Shown: piece after piece, positions 54,923 to 60,064 of the stretch
How positions within the stretch are numbered: position 1 is the first letter of the stretch
How the letters are laid out: each line of letters opens with the position of its first letter
NCBI RefSeq assembly: GCF_038025025.1
Contig: NW_027117340.1
Location: forward strand, 1,116,001-1,180,000
Length of the DNA: 64,000 bases
Source: Phyllosticta citribraziliensis
Lineage: Eukaryota
Direction: 5' to 3'
Notes under the pieces: generated by a model
What the model was told of the DNA's origin: nothing
Database searches by the model: none
What the model saw: the letters and a program-made list of their open reading frames with translations, nothing else
Made by a program: the position numbers and the translations under genes

Positions 54923-56701
54923 TCAGTTCTTGAGCTTGAAGCTCTCCCTGATGGCGTCGCCAAAGCGGTGGATGGCCTCCTGGATTTTGTCGGCCGGAGC
55001 GGCAGCGAACGTGGCGCGGAAGAACATGGTGTCGTGGGCGGCGTCGGGCTCGGCGTAGAACCAGCTGCCCTTCATGACGAGCGCGCCGTGTTCGATGATG
55101 AGCTGGAAGATATCGTCTTCCAGCTCAGTGAGCGACTTGGTCGACGCGTGAGGGTGCTTGCGCCAGTCGATTTGAAGCCAGTGCTTAGCAGTTGTTAGTG
55201 TCGATAATTCTCGAATGGAGGCTCTGTCAAGAATCACTTACGAACATGCCTGCCATGGGCGGCTTCCAGCTCACCACGTCCTTTGGCAGGAACTTGTCGC
55301 AGGCCCGGAGCATCACGTCGCGGCGGTGCGTGTACTCCTTGCGAATGTGAATCAGCCAGTCAATGTATCCCGAGTGTCCCCAGTGCTCGTCGAGGAGCTT
55401 GAACAGGATCAACTGGCTCATGCCGCTCGGGCCCTGCGTCGACACGTCCGCGTGCTTCGAGTACCGCTCTACGATCTGCTGGGCGCCCGTGATCCAGCCA
55501 ACTCTGCTGCCCGGCGACACAACCTTGGAGAAGGAATCCATGCGCAGGACGCGACCGTCAACGTCCATGCTCAGCAGCGAGGGGACGATCTCCTTCAAAA
55601 ACTCGGCGTGGGAGGCTGGCGGCTCCGGCGTGGCGGCGTCCGGACCGCCGTAAGGGTCCATCTGCAGAAAGTAATACGGCTCGTCCTCGAAAATGTAGAG
55701 GTCGTGTTTCTGCGCCACCTTGTAGATCTCCCGCCGACGCTCTGCGCCCTGCGTGGCGCCCGTGGGGTTCTGGCCAGAGGGCACAGTGTACAGGACGAAC
55801 GGCTTACGAGCGCCACCCCTGGCGGCAGAGTCCCAGTTTGTGAGCACCTGGTCTAGGCTATCGGGAAGCAGGCCTTGGTCGTCCATCTTTACGCCTGCGA
55901 CCTTTACTCCCATTGGCGCTGCCGTCTCGATTGCCGTCGCGAATGTGTAGTCCTCGGACAGGATGTAGTCACCGGGCTGAGTGAAGATGCGCAGCGACAT
56001 TTCCAGGGCAGAAGTGCTGCCAATGGTCATGTGGCACGCCCAATCAGCGTAGGGAGGGTTGTGGATGAGCTCTGTGTGCTCAGTGACCCAGCGCAGCAAT
56101 TGCGCCGCGCCGTGACCCTGGCCATAGTTGAAGGCCGTGGCAATGTCGAAAATGCTCTTGTCCTCGGCCAAATCATGCTTGCCTACGTGGACCTTGACGC
56201 CCTCCTCCTTGGTCTCTTGCTCACTGTACTTGCCCACGGACGGCATGGTCAAATCGAGGCTGTCGAATGGGAAATACTCGGACGAGGGCAGGCCTCCTCC
56301 GAGAGAAATCAGACCGGGCTTGCCCAGGTATTTGGCGGCATTCTTGAGCGAGTTGCCCTTTCGCGACTTGGACTCGGTGCTAATGTAGTCTAGACAGGCC
56401 AATTGCGTAGATTAGCATCCGTATCACGCAATGGCCGCTCAATTGCTATGGCAGAGAGACATTGAGAGGCAGGGCGCATTACGGACTTACGATCCCACCT
56501 CTTCGCCTTGGGCTTGTGACTGTGCGAGTAGCTCTTGAAGCGCTCGCTGTTTGCGGGGGCCGCGACGCCCCACGTCGACTTCTCAGCCTTCTTGCGGCGG
56601 CCCCGAATGTCGTTGATGGGCATGGGAGCCGCCAGCGGATCCGGTAGCGGCACACCCGTGGTGTCGGTAATTGCTTCGACCTCGACGTTGTGGGGGGCCA
56701 T
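54923..56701 (-). CDS. ARO8: Aromatic amino acid / 2-aminoadipate aminotransferase (PLP-dependent, class I)
   Basis: ISLGGGLP, YTVPSGQNPTG, EDEPYYFLQM, PLP-lysine DSFSK, PGSRVGW, FFRATFAAA; exons 56701-56491, 56389-55242, 55183-54923. Confidence 0.92.
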
Positions 56702-56812: not shown

Positions 56813-58500
56813 TTGTATGCAAGGGCCTCTTGTCGCAGGGCGCGCGACATGCCCGAGGGAGGGCTGAACGAGATGGTCGCTTATCACCGGTTTACGGCCC
56901 GACGAGCTTCTCGAAGCGGCATGGCGCTGATCTGCGCCTGGGATTAGTTCGCTTGTCAGACCTGACCAACCGACCTCATCTCTTCGTCATTACGACAAAA
57001 AACCCTGGATTCGTCCATTGCTCTGCAACCCTTTGTGAACAGCTCTCCAGATACTATCGTGTGAGTACTGAGGAAGCATCACTGGCTTACCTCTCATGAT
57101 GGCGACGCTGCATGCGCATAGCGTCCCCGCTTACCGCATCGACCGGTTTTCGAAGAGCTGCGGCAAGGTGATGACTGCATAGAGTCCAGATGACTCTTCC
57201 AGGAACCTCTTTGAATTGTACAAAATCACGCCGGCTCAAAAAGACCAATCCGATGAGCGCACATGGACCAGGCCAAGAAGAGCGATATCGCCCAATGTAT
57301 GACTTGGGGTCTCTCCCAAGGGAATGCTCTTGATCTGGATTGTCAGTTTCTTGAGTAGGATGCCATCTTCGTGCTGGTTATTTGACACCAGTCGTCTTCA
57401 TTCAAGCATCTTCTCAAGACTTACAAGGCTTCTGTGCGGGAACTCGTCTCACACAAGACCGGGGTAACAATCAAACGCCCATGAATTCTCACCAACCGAC
57501 TTTTGTTTGAAAGCTTTGGTATTCCTCACCATCTGGCGAAACATTTCGGCCAGGAGCGACGCGACAGGAATCTGAAGAAAATTCCCAAATGACAGCAGCG
57601 AACAAATGATCCGAAAGGTGGACTGATGCTCAACGATCAAGATCCGAAAACTTCTCCTGGGCTCTCCGGCATCCTGGGTTCATCTAGCACATCAGCAGAA
57701 ACATCTCTCCCGGTCCAATATCAAAACTGGTTCTCGCGTTCTCAAAATTGCAACGACACTGAAAGCTTCGAGCAAGCATACACCCCCGCGATCTCTGTCG
57801 GTAGACAATCCGTTGCTCCTTGTATTCATTCGTATCAGGGGTAATGAGATTTGCCTTCATCAGTTCTTCCGCTCCCAAAAAGTTTCAGTCTCGGCCCTGA
57901 TGGTTACCACGGATACCGTGGGGAGCTGGGCAGGCGAATATCGCAGCCCGAAATTGCATCCGTACCGTAGCGGCCCGCTCCGCCACGCGCTTACGCCCGC
58001 CACGCAGATTATTTCTGCTCGCTTATCTACGTAGCACTGGGAAGATCGGTGCTGGTGAGCGCCCTCTGTCTGCTTCTGGAAATGCCGAGAGCTGACCCGA
58101 CACAGATGCAGCAGGTAGGCGTATAGCTGTCTCTCGTCCCTTGTTGATCCTCGATTCCTACTCATAGTAGCATACATGGTACCTTCCTCTCCATCTCAAT
58201 TCTACGACTATCATTCACGCTTTTTTTCGCCGCCCACCGGTGAAGATTATTGCGGACATACATCACTGACACCAAACAGTCCCGGCGCAAAAAGCGAAAA
58301 TGCAGACAGCTGCAGACAGCCGCAAGCTGAGGCGAGACGCCTTCCGTCTTTATCTTCCGTCTTCGTGCGTTTCATATGGTCCAACAGCTCCTAGAATACC
58401 GCAAGCGCGCATCGCCAGCCCCGGGGACGTGCTTCGGTACCACTCTGCAAGATACAGCGAGCAGCAAGAAAGAAAGGCCTTCAAAACGTCTCCAGTCAAT

Positions 58501-58581
58501 AGATTGGCCAGAAATTGAACCTGGGACTTACCGTGGATGCGACTGTAGCCACGGCACGCGTTTCTACTACACCACCAACCC
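58501..58581 (-). ncRNA. Non-canonical tRNA-like element, copy 1 (pseudo-tRNA or tRNA-derived RNA)
   Basis: GGGTTGG TG GTGT AGTAGAA ACGC G TGCCGTGG CTACAGTCGCAT CCACGGTA AGTC CCAGG TTCAATT TCTGG CCAATCT (A): complete cloverleaf with A/B-box-like sequences. Confidence 0.75.
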
Positions 58582-58750
58582 AGTACTACTGTGAGAGCAG
58601 CATGTTTACCTGACACACCCACAAAGCCTTACTTTCTCAACCACTCCGCAAACAGGTCTCGCGCTGATTAGGATCCTTGACTTTCCCTTTCCTGAGACTC
58701 GCTACCACTCTCTTCTGCAGAGCAAAAAGAAATCAGGTAAAAAGAATCGC

Positions 58751-58831
58751 AGATTGGCCAGGACTTGAGCCTAGGACTCGCCATGGGCGCGACTGTAGCC
58801 ACGGCGCATGTTTCCACTACCCCACCAACCC
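58751..58831 (-). ncRNA. Non-canonical tRNA-like element, copy 2 (pseudo-tRNA or tRNA-derived RNA)
   Basis: GGGTTGG TG GGGT AGTGGAA ACAT G CGCCGTGG CTACAGTCGCGC CCATGGCG AGTC CTAGG CTCAAGT CCTGG CCAATCT (G); T5 tracts 3' of it at 58743-58739 and 58728-58724 (Pol III terminator-like). Confidence 0.75.
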
Positions 58832-59229
58832 GTTTCGGCTCGTTTTGGCTACATGGCGCAGCACCGACATTCTAAATATAAATCGTCGCTGTCAACAACG
58901 CAGTAAAAGGACCGGATGCCCCAAAGTGGGTTTCCGGAGGTGAGAGATCGATCCTCCGCCGGCTTTCATGGCGGCGCCCGACGCACCCACGTGCCAACGT
59001 TTTGCCTAATCATCATTTTCCGGCAGCTGTAATGAGTAATGATTGTTGGCCCTGTGTCCAAATGGTCCCGGCTGCTAGCAATGTAGGCTCCACCTTCGTG
59101 GAACTCGATTTCCAGGCGTGCGGGGTTGCTGGCAGGGTTGTCGGCAACAGAGAACAGCTCGCTTTGCTTTCGCCAACTCATCTCTCAATTTCTCTGGTGG
59201 AAAGCTCAAGAGGTACAGAGTAACAAAAT

Positions 59230-60064
59230 ATGGAAGGAAAAGTCGTTGCTATTACTGGTGGTGCTCAAGGCATTGGCTTTGAAACCGCCAAGACGCTGGT
59301 CTCGCGTGGGGCCAGGGTATCAATCGGTGATATCGACAAAGCCGAACTCGAGAAGGCTGAGGAGTACTTCAAATCCATTGGTAAAGGAGGAGACACTTTT
59401 TTTCAAAGGTTGGATATCACAAATCGACAAAATGTGGACCACTGGATGGACAACACTGTCCAGTGGGCTGGGAAGTTGGACGCCGCCGTCAACTCTGCGG
59501 GGAGAAATTGCTCGGAATCTGGTGCGCCAAAGATTGAAGACACTTCGGACGAGCGCTGGGATACACTTCTTCATACCAACCTCTCGGTTCGTTTGGCGTT
59601 TCCTGTTTGGCGCAAACGTCTTTGACTGACGGACTCTAGGGCACTTTCTACTCTCTCCGTGCAGAGCTCCGAAACATCAAGGACGGAGGAAGCATCGTCT
59701 GCCTCTCCAGCGTTCAAGGTCGGCTCGGGTTCCCAACTTCAGCCGCCTACTCTGCAGCGAAGCACGGCGTCATCGGCCTGGTGAGGAGTGCGGCCAAAGA
59801 AAACGGCGCGAGAAATGTGCGCGTCAACGCCGTTGCACCGTATGTCGAACCCAGTCGATTCCAACTCTCGGCGTACTGACTGTGATCAGGGGCGCCATAG
59901 ACACCAGAATGGTTCAGCTTGAGCACAAGAACGAGATCCAAACGCCCATCAAGCGCATAGGCACGCCTCAAGAGGTTGCAGGCCTCATCGCCTATTTGCT
60001 TAGCGACGAGGCTGGCTTCATCACAGGAGCGACGTATTCGATTGACGGCGGTTGGGCATGTTGA
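59230..60064 (+). CDS. Classical short-chain dehydrogenase/reductase
   Basis: [13 protein letters not shown], catalytic S and YSAAK, VNAVAP|GAIDT, IDGGW; introns 59587-59639 and 59840-59889. Confidence 0.92.

Follow-up and report, generated by a model that had tools for sequence, protein, structure and literature searches.

Two tandem tRNA-type elements with a remodelled anticodon arm in Phyllosticta citribraziliensis and their possible place in a tRNA-derived family

Two 81-nt elements of tRNA type, which lie in tandem on the minus strand of the window (the whole stretch of 64 kb that was analysed), are tentatively explained as old paralogues of a lineage-specific, multi-copy, tRNA-derived family of the Pol III type, the RNA of which would be tRNA-like and not a standard decoder. 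Within such a family, the pair in the window has the look of weak members, or of members on the way out.

Structure of the two elements

The elements, the arms by which they differ from a common tRNA, and the features downstream of them are the following.

58581..58501, minus strand: copy 1, an 81-nt tRNA-type element with acceptor GGGTTGG/CCAATCT, including G1:U72 and G3:U70; the base after the acceptor stem (A73 position) is A
58831..58751, minus strand: copy 2, an 81-nt paralogue with pair 11/23 broken and a C at T-loop position 54; the base after the acceptor stem is G
58529..58556, minus strand: anticodon arm of copy 1, an 8-bp helix with a 12-nt loop, 11 nt above a normal arm
58779..58806, minus strand: anticodon arm of copy 2, the same 8-bp helix with pair 26/53 C-G instead of U-A, and a 12-nt loop
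58483..58486, minus strand: T4 run, 15 nt past copy 1, a weak candidate Pol III terminator
58739..58743, minus strand: T5 run, 8 nt past copy 2, a candidate Pol III terminator
58434..58475, minus strand: downstream flank patch of copy 1, with weak similarity to that of copy 2, a pyrimidine-rich stretch followed by GAGTGGTA-CGA; local alignment score 22, reached by 4 of 300 shuffles
58699..58732, minus strand: matching downstream flank patch of copy 2, from the same local alignment

An earlier note, made from the sequence alone, had described two 81-nt minus-strand elements at a distance of 250 bp, with 14 differences of which 12 were transitions, and all of this was confirmed by alignment (starts 250 bp apart, no indels, 83% identity). 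Both copies possess a 7-bp acceptor stem, a 4-bp D stem and a 5-bp T stem with a 7-nt loop, as in the body of a tRNA, as well as a variable region of 4 nt; this body presumably resembles that of glycine or alanine tRNAs. The shared 8-bp helix closing a 12-nt loop, also put forward in the earlier note, was retrieved in both copies. Similarly, its statement that the stem differences keep pairing, with one break in the D stem of copy 2, held when the two copies were laid on its cloverleaf, standard pairs being present in 47 of the 48 pair cells. Pair 26/53 is altered on both sides (U-A versus C-G), five pairs show one-sided changes to or from G:U, and the sole broken pair is 11/23 in the D stem of copy 2. 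Pair 3/79, which corresponds to the G3:U70 wobble of tRNA-Ala, is G:U in both copies. The view that both elements fold as cloverleafs stood in part, as the pairing fits both, but the minimum-energy structure is exactly the cloverleaf for copy 1 only, that of copy 2 being different; the folding stability was no better than that of shuffled sequences (z of -1.0 and -0.5 for the two copies). The T4 and T5 runs were found at the positions given by the earlier note, and so were the lesions in the promoter boxes, namely a D-loop AG and T61 in copy 1 and C54 in copy 2, which were judged against the general A- and B-box consensus.

Each of three sub-motifs of the elements occurred at these two sites only in the 64 kb, with 0.00 to 0.20 matches expected, so that, by these counts, the repeat of the elements is far beyond chance. 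A covariance model built from the pair (R1) gave copy 2 a score of 104.6 bits and found no third copy in the 64-kb window, the next best score being 11.5 bits (E 0.97), and local alignment of 57700-58450 did not reveal a third copy either.

Structural constraint on the pair

Outside the elements, the two units can hardly be aligned, except for the downstream patch of about 40 nt listed above, and their similarity fades within about 70 nt downstream. In a neutral simulation with 12 transitions and 2 transversions, a mean of 3.6 pairs were broken, versus one observed; the probability of one broken pair or fewer was 0.067, and 0.034 given nine stem hits. A pair-shuffle control, in which the observed score was reached by 242 of 500 shuffles, is powerless with two sequences. 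Seven of the 12 transitions fall at sites that are CpG in one of the copies. A structure-preserving constraint on the pair is suggested and weakly supported (P of about 0.03-0.07), and the structural selection proposed in the earlier note is to be read at that strength.

Recognition by tRNA models

When offered as a 96-nt stretch, copy 1 matched the Rfam tRNA model (RF00005) over model positions 1-71 with 32.9 bits (threshold 29, E 7.8e-06), the alignment placing 17 nt where the model has 6 and thus locating the 11 extra nucleotides in the anticodon loop. Copy 2, likewise as a 96-nt stretch, gave no match with the Rfam tRNA model at E<=10. Rfam at gathering thresholds returned nothing across the 64 kb, and no tRNA on an 801-nt stretch; copy 1 was missed in both of these scans because it was lost by the speed filters, which are lax at 96 nt. 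Formally, copy 1 is a tRNA with 11 extra nucleotides, and copy 2 has drifted below recognition. Rfam scoring, a check named by the earlier note, hence divides the pair, in that copy 1 exceeds the tRNA threshold. Because it does so, the wording 'rather than an ordinary tRNA' in that note was too strong and hinges on the anticodon arm only. Other interrupted tRNA genes of the same genome may be missed likewise at window scale.

ARAGORN in default mode reported no tRNA genes in the window. With introns allowed, it returned a hybrid spanning both copies with a 255-nt 'intron', and with lowered thresholds a forced Gly(ACC) or Cys(ACA) tRNA, its intron being 5 nt long, among 5-51 plainly false calls in the window; both outcomes were set aside as uninformative. 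Two pattern scans outside the fungus led to chance matches only. Built on the 3' half, a degenerate pattern of 28 nt hit two loci in a metagenome scan, both inside bacterial coding DNA, and a gapped pattern of the loop and T arm hit 22 loci in prokaryote contigs, a number about as estimated beforehand; among these 22 loci, ARAGORN found no tRNAs and the best R1 score was 15.3 bits.

Other members of the family in public runs

Contigs of four public runs were aligned with the stretch around the elements, two being RNA runs of the same organism (X1, 29 contigs; X3, 11 contigs) and two coming from relatives (X5, 43 contigs; X9, 17 contigs). Such contigs carry neither strand nor end information, and their depth is a measure neither of expression nor of copy number; the view of the family given here is a partial one, based on the 32 pieces listed. 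As to likeness, one of the 29 X1 contigs was at least 99% alike, six were 95-99%, 12 were 90-95% and 10 were below 90%. Overall, many contigs show a likeness of 80-99% to copy 1. One X1 contig (record 3) covers 58511-58579 of copy 1 with 7 mismatches, and two others (records 5 and 6) span 58524-58579, each with 6; all three run across the odd arm without a gap. Beyond the 3' end of the acceptor stem, the loose ends of contigs in all four runs continue with 10-12 unrelated nucleotides and then T-rich runs, which amount to T7-T16 in X1, X3 and X5 and are short and interrupted in X9. These loose ends, which differ right past the acceptor stem, show that the gapless contigs stem from other loci. 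As read from these alignments, the odd, ungapped anticodon arm is a trait of the family and not private to the pair, in agreement with the word 'family' in the earlier note.

Loose ends at 58542 and 58546 show that the 5' part of the loop varies, TTAAACA or TTCAAACAG standing there versus CTACAG, followed by a common TCGCAT; one variant 5' piece is the same in X1 and X9 over 28 nt. The acceptor ends vary too, at least one member of a relative ending in CCGACCT (G3-C70) and another in CCAACAT, so that G3:U70 is not family-wide; the 3' helix strands, anticodon regions and acceptor stems of the other members were read in part only. The earlier note had counted near-identical copies elsewhere, together with a high-scoring call as a normal tRNA, as speaking against its reading, and such copies were found part-way, in that the six X1 contigs of 95-99% likeness reach this level somewhere on the aligned stretch. 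In the open-access full texts searched, no description of a tRNA-derived fungal family of this kind was found.

Persistence in relatives

One contig of relative X9 (record 26, 2424 nt), which aligns over 58693-59800 (123 mismatches, 8 gaps), shares synteny with the dehydrogenase gene described below; it holds copy 2 and, with the spacing unchanged, the 5' part of copy 1. The spacer in between (58592-58692) has the same length in this contig and has diverged beyond 80% likeness. Going by this contig, the tandem pair is old, as copy 2 and a 5' portion of copy 1 have stayed in place in one relative. A second X9 contig carries a copy-1-like element (6 mismatches over 74 nt) linked to a further element 394 nt away. 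In relative X5, one contig (record 17) includes copy 2, aligning over 173 nt with 19 mismatches, and its joints that go back along the aligned stretch suggest a third element; another (record 15, of low depth, 12.4) skips 58456-58637 and so is without copy 1. At 58821, all X5 (six) and X9 (two) contigs present there carry the base that restores pair 11/23 of copy 2. To judge from these contigs, the break in this pair is specific to the genome studied here, the pair being intact in both relatives. The region 58693-59230 aligns between species as a whole, the part upstream of copy 2 included, and the conservation of the elements does not clearly exceed that of everything around them.

Downstream of copy 1, at 58186-58455, the relatives appear to carry a third element that the window lacks, and for this reason the local copy number is apparently not fixed.

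The locus and the transcript over the elements

The window belongs to the nuclear genome of a filamentous ascomycete; among its genes are those for a chitin synthase, a Sel1-repeat protein (Chs4-type) and an RNA cyclase. The elements sit in a 2.5-kb gap between two divergent genes, over part of which an RNA contig runs.

start near 56701, minus strand: aminotransferase gene, neighbour of the gap
59230..59586, plus strand: first coding exon of a short-chain dehydrogenase (Pfam adh_short, 1.1e-21); intron 59587-59639, spliced in X1 and X3
58277..59585, plus strand as inferred from splice motifs: cover by an X1 RNA contig with no mismatches, which carries the spliced intron of the neighbour

Contigs of X1 and X3 join 59585 to 59639 across the GT..AG intron of the dehydrogenase gene. 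The X1 record is the one RNA contig matching the locus without mismatch, and it leaves the stretch beside a CTGAC...CAG acceptor-like motif on the plus strand ending at 58279. Because this same contig is joined to the spliced plus-strand mRNA, its cover probably reads the elements antisense, and 58277-59585 probably belongs, as an exon, to a long transcript of the plus strand, antisense to both of them. The X1 cover over the elements does not prove their own expression. In X3, no mismatch-free contig spans both copies, this absence of cover being evidence neither way, and the dehydrogenase contig starts at 59205, 25 nt upstream of the start codon. The contigs suggest an alternative distal promoter of the dehydrogenase gene, with a long 5' leader that would include both elements in antisense orientation. 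On the minus strand, splice-like motifs at copy 1 (cag|gtaaac upstream; a pyrimidine tract and cag downstream) were discarded, having no supporting joint in any run.

Some further observations concern the gap itself. The X1 dehydrogenase contig reaches about 950 nt upstream of the start codon (58277-59229), and its first 1068 nt lie off the aligned stretch and may map to 56902-58276 or further. The latter region, about 1.4 kb of the gap, has no Pfam-bearing open reading frame and short stop-to-stop frames only. About 125 nt upstream of copy 2, at 58955-59027 on the minus strand, a stretch resembles a C/D-box snoRNA, with GCCGG/CCGGC terminal pairing, a C box AUGAUGA and ATGA at the place expected for the D box (CUGA); its match with Rfam snoZ206 is weak (19.7 bits versus a threshold of 50, E 0.69).

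The anticodon arm and the competing readings

A eukaryotic pre-tRNA intron is situated directly 3' of position 37, with its 3' splice site in a bulge and a base pair between anticodon and intron. The arm of the two elements departs from this arrangement. The outer 5-bp stem encloses 18 nt, and all eight contiguous removals of 11 nt leave a G or C at position 33; none of them produced U33, and with it the 5-bp stem, 7-nt loop, U33 and purine 37 of a decoder. The canonical cut after position 37 gives the loop U-G-GCU-A-A, and the would-be 3' splice junction, instead of falling in a bulge, lies inside the continuous 8-bp helix. At -3 of this putative intron, copy 1 has a T and copy 2 a C, and because this base, 3 nt before the 3' splice site, is a pyrimidine, the anticodon-intron pair cannot form. 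The sole canonical-looking loop, Y-U-CGC-A-U, requires that 5 nt within the 12-nt loop be left out of account, and the stem stays at 8 bp; it agrees with the G3:U70 alanine mark and, in copy 1, with the A that follows the stem. CGC is followed by A-U in copy 1 and by G-C in copy 2. A bulge-helix-bulge intron was also considered and rejected, as such an intron would take more than 11-12 extra nucleotides and the helix is without bulges.

It is improbable that the elements are normal genes for a decoding tRNA with an intron, or recent pseudogenes of such genes, in which the 11 nt would be an intron cut at 37/38 to leave a serine-type GCU anticodon with G33. Rfam does align copy 1 end to end with the extra nucleotides exactly in the anticodon loop, members with strong T-runs are present in RNA contigs, and A37 and A38 after U36 suit decoders of ANN codons; however, the 3' splice site would lie within the continuous helix, where an anticodon-intron pair is impossible, the variable region has 4 nt where a serine tRNA needs a long variable arm, the acceptor stem contains G3:U70, and the anticodons would differ between members (GCU versus GUU in a related one) despite a common 'intron' end. 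ARAGORN likewise offered nothing in default mode and only hybrid or forced low-threshold calls when introns were allowed. The G33 in place of the near-universal U33 also tells against this reading, although it is not fatal to decoding by itself, because the tRNA-Ser(CAG) of Candida (PMC8178436) is a functional tRNA with G33. If instead a piece of 5-8 nt after position 32 or 33 were removed by an undescribed route, the genes would encode a tRNA-Ala(CGC) with the loop Y-U-CGC-A-U. The Y-U start and CGC-A-U end are found in copy 1 and in two members with differing 5' parts of the loop, the variable part of the loop is exactly the part to be removed, and both copies have G3:U70, copy 1 with an A after the stem. 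This is nevertheless highly doubtful, as no eukaryotic splicing system is known for pieces of 5-8 nt at that position, copy 2 has G-C and not A-U after CGC, and no contig with such a deletion occurs among the indel rows listed from the RNA runs; in addition, the deletion was chosen by the analyst, which raises the odds of a canonical-looking loop arising by chance. The stem would moreover stay at 8 bp, where a review, in its part on anticodon stems (PMC7609411), gives 5 bp as the rule and 6 bp for the known exceptions and names no active tRNA beyond 6 bp.

An explanation of another kind, which we regard as unlikely, holds that the elements are functionless tRNA-derived pseudogenes in transition-biased drift (CpG or repeat-induced), their conservation coming from a plus-strand 5' exon or promoter of the neighbouring gene. 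Under transition bias (12 of the 14 differences, 7 at CpG sites), G:U pairs would be kept by accident, and a P no better than 0.03-0.07 for the preservation of pairs leaves room for this. Each copy has a promoter-box lesion and a short T-run, copy 2 lacks a tRNA score, copy 1 is missing from one contig of a relative, and copy number varies among relatives. Furthermore, the sole mismatch-free RNA contig at the locus is joined to plus-strand mRNA, and 58693-59230 aligns between species throughout and not in the elements alone. Simple decay is at odds, however, with the persistence of copy 2 and the 5' part of copy 1 in a relative in which the intervening spacer has passed beyond 80% likeness, and with the 83% identity of the elements between flanks that can hardly be aligned. 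Similarly, the one pair that is broken here is intact in the two relatives, and pair 26/53 represents one true two-sided compensatory change.

A model for the family RNA

In the preferred explanation as a tRNA-derived family, the 'top' of the molecule would stay that of a normal tRNA, with a 7-bp acceptor, D arm, T arm and internal A/B-box promoter, and because this top is kept, the family RNA should be made by Pol III and processed at its ends as a tRNA. The anticodon arm would be remodelled throughout the family into an 8-bp helix with a loop of 12-15 nt that starts with Y-U and ends with CGC-A-U. By no known tRNA-splicing rule would an arm of 8 bp with a 12-nt loop become one with U33, a 7-nt loop and a stem of 5 bp; the family RNA is therefore read as tRNA-like and predicted not to act as a standard decoder. 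It may bear the alanine acceptor mark (G3:U70, and the A after the stem in copy 1) and hence be charged with alanine. The local copies would be weaker members, with one promoter-box lesion each, short T4 and T5 runs and, for copy 2, a lost Rfam score. A more far-reaching version, namely a conserved, abundantly transcribed and alanine-marked family of tRNA-shaped Pol III RNAs with the lengthened arm in a group of filamentous ascomycetes, acting either as a micro-excised tRNA-Ala(CGC) or as a chargeable, non-decoding mimic (amino-acid donor, sensor or decoy), is rather unlikely.

Comparison with known systems

Among tRNA-derived Pol III RNAs, the rodent BC1/ID RNAs derive from tRNA-Ala. With these RNAs and with the heads of SINEs, the elements have in common their tRNA descent, a retained Pol III promoter, the loss of anticodon-arm geometry and the formation of a genomic family. 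Unlike SINE heads, they are without an unrelated body or A-rich tail, have T-runs 8-15 nt past the acceptor stem, and keep both the cloverleaf and orthologous positions between species; a tRNA-derived SINE was rejected, as the members share no unrelated body and diverge past the acceptor stem into T-runs. In yeast, tRNA genes (tDNA insulators) or partial tRNA genes (ETC sites) serve as TFIIIC-bound boundaries between divergent genes. The elements also lie between divergent genes and have kept a B-box-like sequence while other parts degraded, but the whole cloverleaf is retained and not the B box alone.

The mammalian mascRNA and the Arabidopsis GUT15 tRNA-like are tRNA-like RNAs released from Pol II transcripts. 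As here, each is a tRNA-shaped module with an abnormal anticodon arm, located in the region of a longer transcript of Pol II. Both are sense modules, whereas the host-type contig found here is most likely antisense and the members have T-runs of their own.

Fungal intron-containing tRNA genes (RF00005) resemble the elements in the cloverleaf, the A and B boxes, the downstream T-run and extra nucleotides confined to the anticodon loop, as well as in being multi-copy, the family described here having conserved orthologues. They differ in that the elements have no U33 after removal of 11 nt, that the extra nucleotides extend the stem by a continuous 3 bp without a bulge, and that copy 2 is not recognised by the tRNA model. 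The Candida tRNA-Ser(CAG) (PMC8178436) is a working fungal tRNA with G33 and mixed identity marks, a combination that would be implied here if the elements were spliced canonically; it differs by its 5-bp stem, 7-nt loop, long variable arm and documented decoding.

Implications

If the extra nucleotides are neither removed nor kept in a stable RNA, the pair would represent a slowly decaying duplicate of a tRNA gene, of a kind that window-scale tRNA and Rfam scans miss through their speed filters. If they are removed, the product would be a G33 decoder with mixed identity marks, or the outcome of a new tRNA processing. If, as in the preferred explanation, the family RNA is stable with its long arm, nothing like it would have been described so far among nuclear tRNA mimics of eukaryotes: a molecule in which the top half of a tRNA is joined to an arm unable to reach the decoding site, and it would provide a testable case in fungi of a chargeable tRNA-like RNA used outside translation.
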